A stretch of 24,719 nt of DNA, taken from contig JBPOHY010000161.1 in NCBI GenBank assembly GCA_052035055.1, positions 1-24,719 of the forward strand, given 5' to 3'. Positions 896-10,680 of this stretch are shown here, piece by piece; position 1 is the first letter of the stretch; every line of letters starts with the position of its first letter. The translations under genes were made by a program, and so were the position numbers. Source of the DNA: a candidate division WWE3 bacterium. GTDB taxonomy: Bacteria > Patescibacteriota > WWE3 > UBA101185 > UBA10185. The notes beneath the pieces were generated by a model. That model was not told where the DNA came from and made no database searches. It saw only the letters and a list, made by a program, of their open reading frames with translations.

Positions 896-983
896 TGGCG
901 GAGAAGGAGGGATTCGAACCCTCGATACCTTGCGGTATGGCGGTTTAGTAAACCGCTGCACTCGACCACTATGCGACTCCTCC
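896..983 (-). tRNA. tRNA-Ser with anticodon ACT (class II, long variable arm), CCA encoded
   Basis: Reverse complement folds as GGAGGAG/CTTCTCC acceptor, GCAT/GTGC D-stem, GCGGT-TTACTAA-ACCGC anticodon arm, ATACC-GCAA-GGTAT variable arm, GAGGG-TTCGAAT-CCCTC T-arm, G discriminator and CCA. Confidence 0.93.
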
Positions 984-1011
984 ATACAATACATGGCTAC
1001 ATACAGTGGGC

Positions 1012-1020
1012 ATTATATCA
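1012..1020 (-). promoter_or_regulatory. Extended -10 promoter (TGATATAAT) for tRNA-Ser(ACT)
   Basis: Perfect TGnTATAAT 28 nt upstream of the tRNA 5' end. Confidence 0.7.
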
Positions 1021-1090: not shown

Positions 1091-1300
1091 CTAATCAAGA
1101 AAAACGGTTTTCACGTAAGTAAGCTTATCGTCTACATTTTTTTGATAGTGCGCTGTTATTGCAGCAGCATTAGTACTAGACTGCTTTAGTAAAAAAAGCA
1201 CCTGCTGGTCTGCCGGGAGCTTACTAGTAGACATTAATAGTCCAAATGTTAGCTCTAATTCTTCATTGGTTTTTTCTGATTTAAAAATTAGTTTTTGCAT
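1091..1300 (-). CDS. Small hypothetical protein (69 aa) between the two tRNA-Ser genes
   Basis: ATG-started ORF with a TATACT hexamer (1309-1314) 8 nt upstream, matching the leaderless pattern of other genes here. No recognisable motif. Confidence 0.5.
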   Translation of the reverse strand: MQKLIFKSEKTNEELELTFGLLMSTSKLPADQQVLFLLKQSSTNAAAITAHYQKNVDDKLTYVKTVFLD

Positions 1301-1524: not shown

Positions 1525-1612
1525 TGGCGGAGGGTGCGGGATTTGAACCCACGGTCCCGAATTACGGGACACGGCTTAGCAAGCCGCTGCATTACCACTC
1601 TGCCAACCCTCC
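1525..1612 (-). tRNA. tRNA-Ser(GCT), class II, CCA encoded
   Basis: GGAGGGT/ACCCTCC acceptor, GCGGC-TTGCTAA-GCCGT anticodon arm, GTCCCG-TAATT-CGGGAC variable arm, GTGGG-TTCAAAT-CCCGC T-arm, then GCCA. Confidence 0.97.
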
Positions 1613-1635: not shown

Positions 1636-1641
1636 ATTATA
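1636..1641 (-). promoter_or_regulatory. -10 element (TATAAT) for tRNA-Ser(GCT), overlapping the comF stop codon
   Basis: Perfect TATAAT 23 nt upstream of the tRNA. Its TAA is the comF stop. Confidence 0.5.
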
Positions 1642-2341
1642 CATAATCCTTAAACTTTTTACATAAAGTAAAACATTGTACATCCAAAACACCAGCCAAA
1701 TACAAAAGCTTAGAAACACTCAAGAGTGTGGCACCGGTAGTACAAACATCATCCACCAGAACAAACGTAGTACCAGCGGAATATTTGCTAACAACGGTCG
1801 AATTTAATTCAAATGCGTTTTCCAAGTTCTTAAATCTTTCGGTACGACCTAATAAGTACTGACCCTGCGTATGCACACACCTTTTTAGCAATCGCTCCTC
1901 GACCTTAAGACCAAAAGCAGCTCCTAGTTCCTTTGCAATCAACACTGCCTGATTAAATCCACGGCGTTTATAGCGCTCTGTGCTCAATGGGACAGGTATA
2001 AGCACAACGTCCTTGTAAACAAGACCGCATTTTTTTGCATGGTCTATACCTGCTTTTATCAAAACTTTCAGCGCAGCAAAAGTACGGGCACCATATTTTG
2101 CCCTTTTTAAACACAGACGCACCTTCCCCTCATACAAAAAACAGCTGAAAATTTTTGTGGGCAAAAAAGAGGTCCTACAACAGTCATGTACCTTACCTTC
2201 CTTACTAAACTTATCGCAAACGATACAAAAGTCATACTCTACTACGCGGCAATTATCCAAACACAAGTCACAAAACACTTTGCCCCTTTTTTCACAGATC
2301 AAACAGGTTGGTGTAAAAATGGCATTTATAAGCTTTTCCAT
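1637..2341 (-). CDS. comF: ComF family competence protein (Zn-finger plus phosphoribosyltransferase domain)
   Basis: N-terminal CLIC...CDLC and CIVC motifs, VPL...RRGFNQA, and the PRPP-binding loop VLVDDVCTTGATL. Confidence 0.92.
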   Translation of the reverse strand: MEKLINAIFTPTCLICEKRGKVFCDLCLDNCRVVEYDFCIVCDKFSKEGKVHDCCRTSFLPTKIFSCFLYEGKVRLCLKRAKYGARTFAALKVLIKAGIDHAKKCGLVYKDVVLIPVPLSTERYKRRGFNQAVLIAKELGAAFGLKVEERLLKRCVHTQGQYLLGRTERFKNLENAFELNSTVVSKYSAGTTFVLVDDVCTTGATLLSVSKLLYLAGVLDVQCFTLCKKFKDYV

Positions 2342-5998: not shown

Positions 5999-6431
5999 TG
6001 GTGGAGATGGGGGGAATCGAACCCCCGTCCTGAAAGCGCAAAGTACAAAAGTTTACAACGCAGGCAAAGCCGGCGCTGGGAGGCATTAAGCATCCCAAGT
6101 TTAGCAAGATAGATTTTTAGAAAGCTAGCTATCTCACGCTCTAGAACTCTTTCTATAGACTAGGTTTAAGGTTTGCCCTTTTGGAAAGTTAGTTCGTCAG
6201 ACTAAATATCCGCAACCTGATTTTATAAGACCCTTTTAGCCCTTTCAGGTAAAAACTAAAGGATCGCCATATCGCTTAAAAAATTAAGCGGCTGCGTAAG
6301 CGTATTCTGCGAACGCTGGCTGAAGTGCTACTTCGTTTTCTGCACTTATAGTTTTGTTGGCTTTTAACAAAGATCCAACACTTTGACTTGCTCTTGTAAA
6401 TTTTGCAGTCAGTCTAAGCCACTGCATCCCC
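5999..6431 (-). ncRNA. ssrA: tmRNA (433 nt), tag peptide AENEVALQPAFAEYAYAAA
   Basis: The 5' end GGGGATGCAGTGGCTTAGAC pairs with the 3' end CATCTCCACCA and gives the alanine G3:U70 pair. T-arm is GGGGG-TTCGATT-CCCCC. An ATAAGT-GCA resume context opens a tag ORF at 6284-6343 ending AAA-stop. smpB is nearby. Confidence 0.95.
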
Positions 6432-6502: not shown

Positions 6503-9500
6503 TTACTCACTACACGCATTAGCTACAGCCATCCAGTCATTAGCAACAGTGGTAGCACAAAACTCTTGGTGAGCGCCTAAAGGATCTGCGCCAACAGCAA
6601 ATGTACAAAGGGCATCAACCTTTAATTGTTCGCTCCAATCTGAACACGAACCAGGAGACGAGGCAGAAGCCAAACCGTAAGCAACTGAAAAGGTTGCGTC
6701 CAAAAAGTTACATCTACTAGCGGTGACGCTTCGACCTTTAGAAACTATTTCCACAGCCTGTGGGTAAAAGTAGCCTATCAATATATCGTAAGGCCCTTGC
6801 TCACCACTTGCAAAGTCGTCACAACCGTCTACGGGAATACGACCCCACCAAGGGATGCCAACGTCTTCTTCGTCTGCCAATTGCCAAATTCCTGTATACG
6901 GACTCAAAAACCCATTAACACCATTCATAGCAGCAACTATCATCCCAGCCGGAACGTTGTATGCAGCTGCAGCAGCATTTATAACAGCCTGCATTTCGAA
7001 TGACATGCCCTGTGGAATGGTTGGTGGGGCACAACTACCGCTTAGACTACAACCACCTTCGGCCATGTCTAACAAATCCTCTAAAGTTATTTCTTCCGGA
7101 ACATCCTGTATTGTACAATCCCAGGCACCACTTCCAGCAGGCAAGATTCCAGTAGTATCACTACACCAGTATTTTATCGGCAGATAATTAACAAGTGTAT
7201 TAAAGTAGAGCGGATGCTTGGCTATTTCCAAGAACGAGGCGTTAGGACCCCCGACTCCTTTGGTTTCTTTACCATCGTGGAGATTTGGAGCTTCTGCCGA
7301 AGAGGTCGCTCTGGAGTCCAACTGCATAACTGCACGGTACAAAGGCATGTCTTTAGAAGGAGGCCAAAATGCAAAAACCATACTGTTACTTGCCCGTGAA
7401 ATAAAATCAGTGTTTAAAGTTGTTTCGTCTTTCTTTGGTGCAATATTTAAAGTTGTATCCTTTGATAGGGATCCGGCACAAATGTTAGGGCCTGCAAAAG
7501 ATAGAGCGCAAGCTGGATAGTCTGGATCAGGGCTTGTAAAAGTCTTTTTCTTTTTATTCGCGGGACAGTGATCAACGCCAATAGTAGGAAGAACGGGATC
7601 CTCCAATTGATCATCAACATGTTCCTCATCCAAACATACCTGGTTTTCTGGACAATTATCAGTGTTTTCGGCTGGAAAGATGGATGCATATTGTTCTTGT
7701 AGACAAGCCTCTGCAGGCTTCACAGATGGATAAGTAGGATCATTTCCTATACCCGTTCTTTCTATATGAGGATCCTCACAGGATGTATATACACCCCCAT
7801 CAACAGCGCATTCGCATTCAGCCGCTTTAGTATAGGTTTCCCAGTGGTCTATACGTAACGTACGCACAGCGAATTCGGGGTTACCACCACCGTCTGGTGG
7901 GTTTCCACCCGGAAATGCCTTTTTTTCCTCGTTTGCTACATGCCCCAAGGCAACAGGAGTCCATGGATAACACTCATGACTACCGGGATATCCTGGGTTA
8001 TTTGGATCGGCATAAGCAGGAAATATTTGGTTATCGGAATTATAGTCAAAAGATTCCTCACACAAGGGATAAGTAACGCGCAAATCATCCATAGGCTGGG
8101 GATTATCACCAAGCTCATCTGTTCTATTTGCCATAACCTGTATAGCACCAGGTCCGTAAATAAATAAGCCATACGCAGCCTGACCGGCGGCTTCAACGGC
8201 ACAACCAAGGTCAACAGTATTGCCACCACCACAAGCAGTTAAAACGGCGTCCAGAACCTTTTGCTGCCAACAATTAAAGTTTTTACAGGAATCTTCATTA
8301 TTTAGTGCAAGTTCTTTTTCACGCAAAATAGCAGTTGACGACATGTAAACGGTTCTTTGAGGGGTAGGCGAGTCCATTTGGTCATTGCGAGTTGCGTCCT
8401 GAATACCCTGAAAGGTTTTTATTAGCTTATCCGCAAAGGTGGGTTCGGTAGAGGGAGTTACCTCCGGATTATACCCAGCCACATAGGATAGCGCACATAT
8501 ACTCATAGGATTACCTATAGAACCAACAGGGGTACCCTTGGGCTGAAGGCCACCATATTCGGCTGCAAATGGATGGTCAAAAACATCAGAAAATTTCTTC
8601 CCTGTAACCTGATCGCTGGTTAGTGCCAGCGCGCTAACAGCACTTGTTCGAGGGCCCTCATTCTTTTCGTTGGCCAAAAACGTGTTCGTTGCGGTAGTTA
8701 TCGTTCCAAACTGAGCCTCGGTACCACCTCCAAAAACATGCGCCTCAGGTCTGGGGGCCTGGCAGTTGCCAGTGAACGAGTCATTTGTGGTTTGTTCGCA
8801 GCTAGGAACACGGGCGCTACCTGTAGGCAACATATACTCGGGCCTAAAGTAATACTCCGGGAGGCTGTAGGGACCACAATACCCTTCACACTCCGGGTCA
8901 TTAATGTCACAAATACTCCATGGCGGTTGAATTTTACATAATTGAATAGGGGCACCGCCTTGCTTACAAACATATGCGGACAAATCAGAACTCGCATATT
9001 GCTGCTCCCATACCGAAGAGGAACCCATACACGAAGCCGGCGCTCCACAAGTTTGGGAATTACGAACACTTGAATTTTTCCCCTGGGAGTCTTTGCATTC
9101 TAAAAAGTAATCGCAAGGTAATAGATTTAGGTCATTCTCAGGTTCCCCAAAGTATCTTAGGTGTGTAAATTCACCGTCCGAGGGTACACAACCGCCGAGT
9201 TGACAATTAACACCGCCAACTGGGTGCGTCGGGTCTTGATACACTGCCGTCAAGTCTTCGGTATTTATGAAAGAACGATATGGAAGACCCGAACACTGTT
9301 TTGGAACAAAATCTAAAGATATAGCAGTGGCAAACTCTTCCCAAGTTAAGTGGTCCGTAGGGTTACTATCCGGTGTATGACAAAGTGCTGGGTTTTCTGG
9401 ATGCAGCCGCTCACAATCTTTTGACCACAAACCCCCATGGGTTTCGCCCAATTCAAAATTAATATAGCCACCACCCAAAACAATGTTGGGGTTACCATTC

Positions 9501-10204
9501 TTTTTATGTCTTCCATCGAATTCCGTAAGGGTTGTAAAATGGTCCACTGTGGTTGGAGCAGATCCCTGGCTCACCATAGTAAGAGTAGAATCAACCTCCG
9601 CAGTACAACCCAAAAGATCGACTCTATTTGTGAAATCTAGTGTGAGTGGGGGAAGCCCTGGAACACCGTTACCCGAACAGTTAATTGGAATAGTCAAATC
9701 GGTCATATCCTTAGCAGATGCAAAAGTAAGCAAGTCAAAGTTGCCATCACAAAAAATCGCTAAATATACTTTAAAACCTGGTGGGCCAATTCGTCGCATT
9801 GTAAGGTGAAATCTACCGGCTTCATAAAAACCGTCCTCGCGCAACGTGGTTGTAGTAGATGAAAACAGATGGCCCAATGACCCTTTATCCTTACCAGTTG
9901 TCGTACCTGGAAGAGCCTCATAAAGTGCGACAGTTGCATTAGGGATACCACCAGCAACGATTTTTCGACCGCCTACTAGCTCTGCTCCAGAATTTATAAC
10001 CTTACCGCAAATAGAAGCCATTCCTGGGTCCTCGGCAACAGGACACTTACTCCCAGGGATGTAATTAACGTCCTCGCCATCAGCTGAAACATGAGTAAGG
10101 GCTCGGATGACTGGTTTAATGGATTGTTCGAGGCCGCGAAAAAGTATAAGACCCAAAATGAATATACAAACAGTAAAAATTGCAAAAGGTACCTTACGAT
10201 TCAT
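6503..10204 (-). CDS. Large membrane-anchored/secreted Cys-rich protein (1233 aa) with a C-terminal lysozyme-like (SLT-like) domain
   Basis: N-terminal TM/signal (PFAIFTVCIFILGLILF) and many paired Cys. The C-terminal INAAAAAYNVPAGMIVAA...GEQGPYDI...CNFLDATFSVAYGL resembles SLT motifs I-III. Confidence 0.8.
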   Translation of the reverse strand: MNRKVPFAIFTVCIFILGLILFRGLEQSIKPVIRALTHVSADGEDVNYIPGSKCPVAEDPGMASICGKVINSGAELVGGRKIVAGGIPNATVALYEALPGTTTGKDKGSLGHLFSSTTTTLREDGFYEAGRFHLTMRRIGPPGFKVYLAIFCDGNFDLLTFASAKDMTDLTIPINCSGNGVPGLPPLTLDFTNRVDLLGCTAEVDSTLTMVSQGSAPTTVDHFTTLTEFDGRHKKNGNPNIVLGGGYINFELGETHGGLWSKDCERLHPENPALCHTPDSNPTDHLTWEEFATAISLDFVPKQCSGLPYRSFINTEDLTAVYQDPTHPVGGVNCQLGGCVPSDGEFTHLRYFGEPENDLNLLPCDYFLECKDSQGKNSSVRNSQTCGAPASCMGSSSVWEQQYASSDLSAYVCKQGGAPIQLCKIQPPWSICDINDPECEGYCGPYSLPEYYFRPEYMLPTGSARVPSCEQTTNDSFTGNCQAPRPEAHVFGGGTEAQFGTITTATNTFLANEKNEGPRTSAVSALALTSDQVTGKKFSDVFDHPFAAEYGGLQPKGTPVGSIGNPMSICALSYVAGYNPEVTPSTEPTFADKLIKTFQGIQDATRNDQMDSPTPQRTVYMSSTAILREKELALNNEDSCKNFNCWQQKVLDAVLTACGGGNTVDLGCAVEAAGQAAYGLFIYGPGAIQVMANRTDELGDNPQPMDDLRVTYPLCEESFDYNSDNQIFPAYADPNNPGYPGSHECYPWTPVALGHVANEEKKAFPGGNPPDGGGNPEFAVRTLRIDHWETYTKAAECECAVDGGVYTSCEDPHIERTGIGNDPTYPSVKPAEACLQEQYASIFPAENTDNCPENQVCLDEEHVDDQLEDPVLPTIGVDHCPANKKKKTFTSPDPDYPACALSFAGPNICAGSLSKDTTLNIAPKKDETTLNTDFISRASNSMVFAFWPPSKDMPLYRAVMQLDSRATSSAEAPNLHDGKETKGVGGPNASFLEIAKHPLYFNTLVNYLPIKYWCSDTTGILPAGSGAWDCTIQDVPEEITLEDLLDMAEGGCSLSGSCAPPTIPQGMSFEMQAVINAAAAAYNVPAGMIVAAMNGVNGFLSPYTGIWQLADEEDVGIPWWGRIPVDGCDDFASGEQGPYDILIGYFYPQAVEIVSKGRSVTASRCNFLDATFSVAYGLASASSPGSCSDWSEQLKVDALCTFAVGADPLGAHQEFCATTVANDWMAVANACSE

Positions 10205-10221: not shown

Positions 10222-10680
10222 TCAAACTCGGCCCAGCAGATACTTTTTAGAAAGATCCAGGTCTCGTTTTATTTGCTTTTCCTTGACGCTTTGCTTTTTT
10301 TCGAATAGCTTTTTACCCTTAGCAACAGCCAATTCGAGTTTAATTTTTCCGTGTAACAAAACCAGGGCTAGCGGAACAGCTGTTTTACCTTTCTCTTGTA
10401 AATGTCTTCGTATCTCGGACAACTCGGTTTTTGTTAACAAAAGTTCACGCGGGCGACGCGCGGTAGAGTCGTCGCTTTCTTGGCTTTGCTTAGAATATCT
10501 ACCAATATTTAAATTTACTAGCGTAAGGATGTCTTCGACAAAAGAAATATAGGAACCCTCAAAATGAATGTTGCCCTCCTTTATAGCCTTTACCTCATGT
10601 CCCTTAAGTGCAATACCGGCAATATATTTGTCTAAAACTTCAAAGTTGAAAAGTGCTTTTTTATTTTTTGAGAGGAGCAT
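10222..10680 (-). CDS. smpB: SsrA-binding protein SmpB
   Basis: NKKALFNFEVLDKYIAGIALKGHEVKAIKEG, RRPRELLL, and the basic tail AKGKKLFEKKQSVKEKQIKRD. Confidence 0.96.
   Translation of the reverse strand: MLLSKNKKALFNFEVLDKYIAGIALKGHEVKAIKEGNIHFEGSYISFVEDILTLVNLNIGRYSKQSQESDDSTARRPRELLLTKTELSEIRRHLQEKGKTAVPLALVLLHGKIKLELAVAKGKKLFEKKQSVKEKQIKRDLDLSKKYLLGRV

Follow-up and report, generated by a model that had tools for sequence, protein, structure and literature searches.

The contig JBPOHY010000161.1 of an ultra-small bacterium of the Patescibacteria, candidate division WWE3 (24,719 nucleotides, analysed over its whole length and hereafter referred to as the window) carries on its minus strand a gene for a serine tRNA with the anticodon ACU, in which wobble position 34 is an adenosine. 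We consider it likely that this tRNA-Ser(ACU) is functional, is charged by seryl-tRNA synthetase (SerRS), keeps A34 unmodified and serves as a dedicated reader of AGU codons beside the canonical tRNA-Ser(GCU), the genetic code being unchanged. Recent papers treat a serine tRNA of the A34 type as nearly absent from bacteria, and the window provides a natural case.

A tRNA-Ser(ACU) gene in a WWE3 genome

The genome that holds the window (G000; the remaining G codes used below denote genomes of relatives in its order or class) is an assembly of 1.10 Mb in 215 contigs, with a G+C content of 39.8% and a completeness of 97%. The features of the window that bear directly on the tRNA are the following.

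896–983, minus strand: tRNA-Ser with anticodon ACU (ARAGORN; Rfam RF00005, 54.0 bits, the gathering score being 29)
949–947, minus strand: anticodon of tRNA-Ser(ACU), A34 being the complement of base 949 (sequence)
1012–1020, minus strand: extended −10 promoter-like motif TGATATAAT, 28 nt before the 5′ end of tRNA-Ser(ACU) (sequence)
1525–1612, minus strand: tRNA-Ser(GCU), the canonical AGY reader (ARAGORN; Rfam, 59.7 bits), 541 nt upstream of tRNA-Ser(ACU)

As read from the sequence, the tRNA has an acceptor stem of 7 bp that includes one G-U pair, a D stem of 4 bp, an anticodon stem of 5 bp with the loop UUACUAA, and a T stem of 5 bp. The variable arm consists of a 5-bp stem and a 4-nt loop, which places the molecule in class II, and the gene ends with G73 and an encoded CCA. 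A first-pass annotation of the window had described an intact cloverleaf with a long variable arm, G73, CCA, a TT-ACT-AA loop and A34 at base 949, and this description matches ARAGORN, Rfam and the sequence. In E. coli the SerRS identity set comprises G73, G1-C72, G2-C71, A3-U70 and C11-G24; it is complete in the Ser(ACU) of the window.

The same annotation regarded the gene as a genuine tRNA with a promoter of its own, and the promoter-like motif at 1020–1012, predicted from sequence, is in line with that. The position of the putative −10 motif would imply a leader of ~21 nt for processing by RNase P. A promoter scanner that demands a −35 element did not report the TGATATAAT motif. Motifs resembling TGnTAnAAT also precede the Ser(ACU) orthologues in G015, G038, G065, G075 and G019, and in G027, G028 and G087 the gene sits no more than about 20 nt after another tRNA gene, i.e. 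in a tRNA operon.

Distribution of tRNA-Ser(ACU) in the order, in other bacteria and in viruses

Relatives were surveyed by DNA search followed by ARAGORN across 89 species genomes of the order. Ser(ACU) was found in nine of them, which belong to eight genera and two families: G000, G015, G019, G027, G028, G087, G065 and G075 in family f1, and G038 in family f2. The copies are 82–100% identical, their UUACUAA loop is the same throughout, and all nine carriers also retain Ser(GCU). The anticodon stem-loop was absent from the other 45 genomes of the class.

A wider search was made with the 17-nt anticodon stem-loop in IMG/VR and with an 18-nt version of it in GTDB species-representative genomes. 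The 17-nt stem-loop occurs in 87 IMG/VR contigs, and ARAGORN called Ser(act) in 79 of the first 80 analysed. The viral genes mostly lie within tRNA arrays of up to 17 genes and are 60–81% identical to the tRNA of the window. The 18-nt version was found in at least 120 GTDB species-representative genomes, with Ser(act) called by ARAGORN at 117 loci. Most of the GTDB matches listed are labelled as Patescibacteria group or as named phyla of the Candidate Phyla Radiation (CPR), the latter including Saccharimonadota, Minisyncoccota/Paceibacteria, Levyi-, Gottesmani-, Woesei-, Nomurai-, Taylorii- and Zambryskii-bacteriota. The only anticodon starting with A at these loci, among the matches listed, is ACT, and Ser(GCU) lies within 8 kb at 57 of the 117 loci. 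A decoding strategy peculiar to this lineage, as first supposed, does not agree with this distribution: Ser(ACU) is patchy in the order and widespread in Patescibacteria and phage tRNA arrays.

Among the GTDB matches listed, 26 carry the submitter label Gammaproteobacteria, and several of those viewed have tRNA neighbours of CPR type. Metagenome-assembled genomes (MAGs) labelled Gammaproteobacteria or Pseudomonadales combine a CPR-type Ser(ACU) with Arg(GCG) at loci L290, L318, L337, L301, L260 and L257, in two cases with contigs of ~1 Mb; their labels look wrong. A few Ser(ACU) copies with a phage-type body occur in MAGs of Planctomycetota or Bacteroidota. Seven tRNA genes lie on a 3.5-kb contig of a Levyibacteriota MAG (L258). 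Two of them are distinct Ser(ACU) genes, one with the body type of the window and the other with a different anticodon stem; the rest are Ser(GCU), two Ser(UGA), Ser(CGA) and Arg(GCG). Apparent CCU-anticodon tRNAs with a serine body in G037 and G133 proved to be ordinary Arg(CCU).

The gene is neither an assembly error nor a recent copy of tRNA-Ser(GCU)

The Ser(ACU) of the window shares 74% identity with the neighbouring Ser(GCU) and 80% with the Ser(UGA) of G000. Its D arm is that of the Ser(UGA) type, and its body comes nearest to Ser(UGA) tRNAs of CPR bacteria. The low identity to the neighbour rules out a recent G34A copy of Ser(GCU), as the first-pass annotation had maintained. At the 57 loci elsewhere that hold both genes, ACU-to-GCU identity is 58–80%, which argues for an old isoacceptor lineage and not for recurrent G34A mutants.

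Read support at base 949 was checked in Logan contigs. Four independent runs from wastewater or bioreactors cover the locus, at a depth of only ~3x, and none of them has a different letter at 947–949. A Logan contig from a related strain differs at 12 positions across 898–1117 and keeps ACT. Logan contigs of runs X1 and X8 join position 959 to 1523, omitting 563 bases, with a shorter side of 21 letters; this junction is probably a collapse of the two serine paralogues in the assembly graph and not a real deletion variant.

This thin read support is what could be cited for a sequencing or assembly error at base 949, or for a copy of Ser(GCU) that is decaying as a pseudogene, but the present evidence already refutes such an origin and we put its chance at practically nil. 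The loop is identical in independent assemblies of nine species, and at least 117 other genomes have it as well; the four runs agree at the anticodon, the gene is 74% identical to its GCU neighbour, and its stems covary (see below). Conservation across other genomes is a stronger argument against an assembly error than read depth.

Selection on tRNA-Ser(ACU)

Covariation was analysed in 52 distinct sequences of the body type of the window (D arm TCGCATAGTGG) with at least 80% identity, taken from GTDB species genomes and from the carriers of the order. The anticodon stem-loop is invariant in this set by construction of the search, and hence uninformative on selection. Of the pair cells, 99.1% are canonical; double compensatory changes occur at 13 of the 26 pairs, and all five pairs of the variable arm are among those with compensatory changes. 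None of the 52 sequences departs from G73, G2-C71, A3-U70 or C11-G24, and none of the 51 that have the position departs from G1-C72. The copy of G075 has compensatory changes in the acceptor stem, the variable arm and the T stem. The Ser(ACU) of the window fits this CPR-wide family, with which it shares stem-loop and body type. Taken as sequence evidence, the pattern clearly points to purifying selection by which Ser(ACU) is maintained.

Deaminases, arginine tRNAs and the state of A34

Two domain models, PF00383 (cytidine/deoxycytidylate deaminase) and PF14437 (MafB19-deam, TadA-type), both of which match 12 of 14 control genomes, had no match in the 97% complete G000. This absence of a recognisable TadA or cytidine-deaminase domain is in keeping with the first-pass supposition that TadA activity on the tRNA is lacking. 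When the two models were run across the class, no match to a deaminase domain was obtained in five carriers altogether (G000, G015, G019, G027 and G038). The deaminases of G028 and G087 are clear matches to ComEB, while those of G065 and G075 (130–141 amino acids) gave weak and ambiguous matches with ComEB-like or dCTP-deaminase models on top. None of the deaminase proteins of the carriers reached the TadA cut-off. The non-carrier G077, sister of G028 and G087, encodes on contig C14 (L141:379–876, minus strand) a TadA-like deaminase of 165 amino acids, which scores 81 bits with NF008113 against a cut-off of 150 and matches PF14437 over its full length; its genus uses Arg(GCG) wherever seen.

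The arginine tRNAs of G000 have the anticodons GCG, UCG and CCU, with no ACG. An arginine anticodon-arm pattern matched in 60 genomes of the order, all of which carry Arg(GCG) and none Arg(ACG); matches of Leu(GAG) to the pattern were normal leucine tRNAs. This agrees with the published statement that CPR bacteria have no tRNA-Arg(ACG) and rely on Arg(GCG) (Shulgina & Eddy 2021, PMC8629427). Since, as in CPR bacteria generally, no tRNA adenosine deaminase was found and Arg(GCG) stands in place of Arg(ACG), A34 of Ser(ACU) is expected to be unmodified, and judging by gene content it probably stays an adenosine. The first-pass proposal of an unmodified A34 that reads AGU is the best reading of a lineage with Arg(GCG) and no TadA. 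The lack of Arg(UCU) in G000 was considered as a possible signal and dismissed as not meaningful, given that the 215-contig assembly lacks His and Asp tRNAs as well; in five better-assembled carriers Arg(UCU) gave weak, partial matches with 76–83% identity.

Genetic code and codon use

The code was checked in RpoB and RpoC by tallying the codons of carriers at columns conserved among non-carriers. AGT stands at serine columns in 36 of 41 cases and AGC in 19 of 22, while AGA stands at arginine columns in 496 of 512 and AGG in 54 of 58. The genetic code is standard, with AGU and AGC for serine and AGA and AGG for arginine, and reassignment of either AGR or AGY is ruled out by these tallies, which confirm what had been concluded earlier for AGR from single arginine positions. 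Per 1000 codons G000 uses 13.3 AGT, 11.0 AGC, 12.7 AGA and 7.1 AGG, AGA being its commonest arginine codon. Controlled misreading of AGA as serine, offered earlier as an alternative role for the tRNA, is disfavoured by the frequency of this codon and by its use at conserved arginine columns. In G014 (C5:382357–385338) and G106 (C2:63710–66653) rpoB is broken by frameshifts or by many stop codons, with all three represented, which suggests a flawed assembly or consensus sequence, not a different code.

Genome-wide enrichment of AGU was not seen in G000. In ~19 kb around rpoBC, the preference for AGT relative to the other two-fold pyrimidine-ending boxes had a mean logit difference of +0.25 in carriers and −0.28 in non-carriers (Mann-Whitney p = 0.011, in an unpaired test that ignores phylogeny). 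Carriers exceeded their nearest non-carriers in all seven independent contrasts. We regard the favouring of AGU near rpoBC by carriers as suggestive, not decisive.

Proposed decoding by tRNA-Ser(ACU)

SerRS recognises the long variable arm, G73 and pairs of the acceptor and D stems of its substrates, and not the anticodon. G000 has a SerRS gene with an N-terminal arm domain (contig C90, 93 bits) and also a TsaD gene. Because recognition by SerRS is independent of the anticodon, Ser(ACU) would be charged with serine, as the established behaviour of the enzyme leads one to expect, and because TsaD is present, N6-threonylcarbamoyladenosine (t6A) at A37 is plausible. With the gene content found, A34 would escape deamination. 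By analogy with experiments in E. coli, an unmodified ACU anticodon should form Watson-Crick pairs with AGU and should barely pair with AGC, AGA or AGG: an orthogonal tRNA(ACU) read AGU at 9.4% and AGG at 0.36%, with AGC and AGA below detection (PMC11066159), and an engineered Ser-tRNA(ACU) was tolerated by E. coli, improved growth and was estimated as unlikely to mistranslate (10.64898/2026.05.15.725136). Ser(GCU) would then read AGC and, by G-U wobble, AGU, to which Ser(ACU) would add a dedicated reading of AGU. The loss of TadA would be the permissive condition for such a tRNA, since I34 (inosine at position 34) would also read the arginine codon AGA and the absence of TadA removes this hazard.

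A broader scenario extends the proposal to the whole radiation. In it, CPR bacteria devoid of TadA evolved and kept Ser(ACU) as a split-box reader of AGU with unmodified A34, exchanged it horizontally, with a similar gene in phages, and shifted serine codons to AGU in highly expressed genes. Whether this scenario holds we judge to be an even call.

Origin and spread of the gene

The following genes of the window provide the context of the two serine tRNA genes.

1091–1300, minus strand: open reading frame (ORF) of 69 amino acids between both tRNA genes (ORF list; no Pfam match)
1637–2341, minus strand: ComF-like phosphoribosyltransferase gene (Pfam PF00156, E = 1.4e-7), upstream of tRNA-Ser(GCU)
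5999–6431, minus strand: transfer-messenger RNA (tmRNA) gene (Rfam, 99.6 bits)
6503–10204, minus strand: ORF of 1233 amino acids (ORF list), between the tmRNA gene and smpB
10222–10680, minus strand: smpB (PF01668, E = 1.6e-38)

What is conserved in this arrangement is the ComF-like gene with Ser(GCU) after it, a pair recovered by tblastx in G025, G036, G015, G019, G038 and G075; the ComF-like gene marks the old part of the locus. Positions 1–1524, including the 69-amino-acid ORF, had no blastn or tblastx match beyond Ser(GCU) in the closest non-carriers G025 and G036. Ser(GCU) is followed downstream, on its own strand, by the ACU gene at a distance of 0.5 kb in G000, 20 nt in G028 and G087, 10.8 kb in G015 and 11.5 kb in G075. 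In G019 (L035) the stretch 7–26 nt upstream of Ser(ACU) holds the anticodon stem-loop a second time in degenerate form, GCGGGTAATACTAAACCGCG, which may be a remnant of duplication or recombination. In G075 (L034) the motif CCCTCCGCCA from the 3′ end of the tRNA recurs ~70 nt downstream of the gene, an arrangement reminiscent of the short direct repeats that integration of an element into a tRNA gene leaves behind.

A tree of RpoB and RpoC from 61 genomes was used to place the carriers. The nine carriers require 7 changes on it, against a mean of 8.6 after shuffling, i.e. they are scattered. The relatives closest to G000, namely genus g26, G036, G010 and G020, have no Ser(ACU). The Ser(ACU) copies of the order are, G075 aside, 93–100% identical (mean 0.94), compared with mean identities of 0.86 for Ser(GCU) and 0.84 for Ser(UGA) in the same genomes; between genera, the latter two are 73–92% and 80–93% identical, respectively. 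G019 and G027, which belong to different subclades, have identical Ser(ACU) copies. Among the nine copies, the flanking sequences are unrelated between genera and similar only within one genus, and no mobile-element borders were found around them. A direct phage donor was rejected, no copy among the viral matches analysed being more than 81% identical. Judging from the sequences compared, the Ser(ACU) family is old and widely distributed in CPR bacteria and is patchy in this order. Both horizontal spread without recognisable vehicle borders and repeated loss combined with unusually strong constraint fit this patchiness.

Alternative explanations

The scatter of so few carriers over the tree, the identity of their ACU copies across genera, which exceeds that of the Ser(GCU) and Ser(UGA) paralogues, the unrelated flanks and the ordinary genome-wide use of AGU in G000 would all suit a nearly neutral passenger that spreads horizontally, works, is tolerated without TadA, yields little gain in decoding and is freely gained and lost. 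We find such a passenger unlikely, in view of the stem covariation and invariant SerRS identity positions in the 52 sequences, the persistence of the gene in at least 117 species genomes, the higher preference for AGU near rpoBC in carriers in every contrast, and the want of both mobile-element borders and a near-identical phage copy (best viral match, 81%). Phage tRNAs have been described whose altered anticodon loops let them escape host nucleases, and 79 viral contigs hold Ser(ACU) with the same anticodon stem-loop, mostly in tRNA arrays. Ser(ACU) might on this basis serve mainly in conflict with phages or toxins, as a spare serine tRNA that escapes an anticodon nuclease or as the remnant of a phage tRNA set. 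We give this very little credence, as the window is chromosomal and carries an ABC transporter gene along with smpB and the tmRNA gene, a Pfam view of its genes showed no nuclease or defence gene next to Ser(ACU), and the tRNA body is CPR-like and nearest to CPR Ser(UGA), its identity to the viral copies being 60–81%.

Another possibility is that Ser(ACU) is functional and an enzyme of unrecognised kind converts A34 to inosine or another base, so that the tRNA reads AGU, AGC and possibly AGA. Relatives do have small proteins of the cytidine deaminase fold, ambiguous between ComEB and TadA in G075 and G065 and TadA-like in G077 (81 bits against 150), and the TadA of E. coli acted on a split-box tRNA(ANN), Phe-AAA (10.64898/2026.05.15.725136). 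We nevertheless hold a modified A34 to be improbable: five carriers, G000 included, lack any match to a deaminase domain, the use of Arg(GCG) throughout implies that no I34 system is in use, and I34 would be costly because AGA is the commonest arginine codon and stands at conserved arginine columns. Several points weigh against the preferred reading of Ser(ACU) as an unmodified, dedicated reader of AGU. Its charging and an unmodified A34 are predicted from gene content, and an A34-modifying enzyme of unrecognised kind would escape homology searches. The tRNA is dispensable, since 80 of the 89 species of the order live without it. The comparison of AGT with AGC usage, suggested in the first-pass annotation, gave an AGT share of AGY of 0.547 in G000, ordinary beside the 0.51–0.60 of other two-fold boxes, and when the genes of G000 are binned by their share of NAC codons, AGY tracks the other boxes with local composition. 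The codon contrasts near rpoBC include two of seven that are tiny (0.09), draw on a sample of ~19 kb per genome and are accompanied by an unpaired test that ignores kinship.

Comparison with known A34 tRNAs

Ser(ACU) resembles tRNA-Ser(GCU) of the E. coli serV type in its class II structure, in G73, G1-C72, G2-C71, A3-U70 and C11-G24, in the loop U32 U33 N34 C35 U36 A37 A38 and in its codon box, and the two genes are often linked. The two tRNAs differ at position 34 (G34 and A34, respectively) and in the body, which is 74% identical and in the window nearer to the Ser(UGA) type; whereas Ser(GCU) reads AGC and AGU by wobble, Ser(ACU) is expected to read AGU only, by Watson-Crick pairing. An A34 without tRNA adenosine deaminase activity is shared with the tRNA-Thr(AGU) of Mycoplasma capricolum and the yeast mitochondrial tRNA-Arg(ACG) (PMC11066159), likewise from systems with a small genome and a reduced repertoire of modifications. 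The tRNAs of these reduced systems serve four-fold boxes, where reading of all four codons is harmless, and replace the GNN tRNA. In contrast to the Mycoplasma Thr-AGU type, Ser(ACU) belongs to a split box (AGY for serine, AGR for arginine) and coexists with a GNN tRNA. tRNA-Arg(ACG), a substrate of TadA and the single widespread A34 tRNA of bacteria, also has an encoded A34 and the sequence U33 A34 C35, but its I34 reads CGU, CGC and CGA within a family box, while in Ser(ACU), with U36, I34 would misread AGA. Lineages with Ser(ACU) further depart from the class of I34 tRNAs and TadA substrates in that no tRNA adenosine-34 deaminase was found, Arg(ACG), the ancestral substrate of TadA, is missing and AGA is not synonymous with AGU. 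By every sequence feature tested Ser(ACU) is a tRNA-Ser that falls outside both the I34 class and the four-fold ‘superwobble’ class of A34 tRNAs.

The closest functional counterparts are laboratory constructs with the same anticodon and codon box, the engineered Ser-tRNA(ACU) (Raval et al. 2026, 10.64898/2026.05.15.725136) and a Methanocaldococcus jannaschii (M. jannaschii) tRNA(ACU) (Schmitt et al. 2024, PMC11066159). In E. coli, a host that contains TadA, these were active and AGU-specific, with low mistranslation and no fitness cost. The Ser(ACU) of the window is a natural gene, conserved in many species of a TadA-free lineage. Viral Ser(ACU) (IMG/VR arrays; the chlorella virus ATCV-1 entry in PMC4810235) shares the 17-nt anticodon stem-loop and a class II serine body, and differs in lying on viral contigs within arrays of up to 17 tRNAs, with bodies 60–81% identical, while the gene of the window is chromosomal and stands beside Ser(GCU). 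The ATCV-1 entry for tRNA-Ser(ACU) comes from the table of a review (PMC4810235).

No description of a conserved bacterial Ser(ACU) was found in the literature searched. The database GtRNAdb holds few CPR genomes. In a survey of it, split-box ANN genes were sporadic, always stood beside a GNN tRNA and were conserved at the genus level in no case; all A34 tRNAs were built in E. coli in the same study, natural conserved cases being thought missing (10.64898/2026.05.15.725136). Why adenosine is almost never used at the wobble position, and least of all in split codon boxes, has yet to be explained. With a natural Ser(ACU) it becomes testable, in real organisms or by means of their tRNA genes, whether I34 deamination with misreading of AGA, and not adenosine itself, forbids ACU elsewhere. 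If the broader scenario outlined above holds, the tRNA is a natural and widespread counter-example to the exclusion of split-box ANN anticodons from cellular life, and that exclusion elsewhere would be due to TadA and not to A34 as such. The result also bears on codon-usage models of CPR genomes and on annotation pipelines in which such tRNAs are marked as errors.

Other observations

In the window the tmRNA gene and smpB flank the 1233-amino-acid ORF on the same strand. A tRNA-Ile(UAU) gene was found in G000 (C45:3935–4010), and the same tRNA is present at the CPR loci L026, L321, L344 and L351. G000 has two CAU tRNAs among those found and uses AUA at 28.9 per 1000 codons; in this genome the reader of AUA may be Ile(UAU) in place of a CAU tRNA that carries lysidine.

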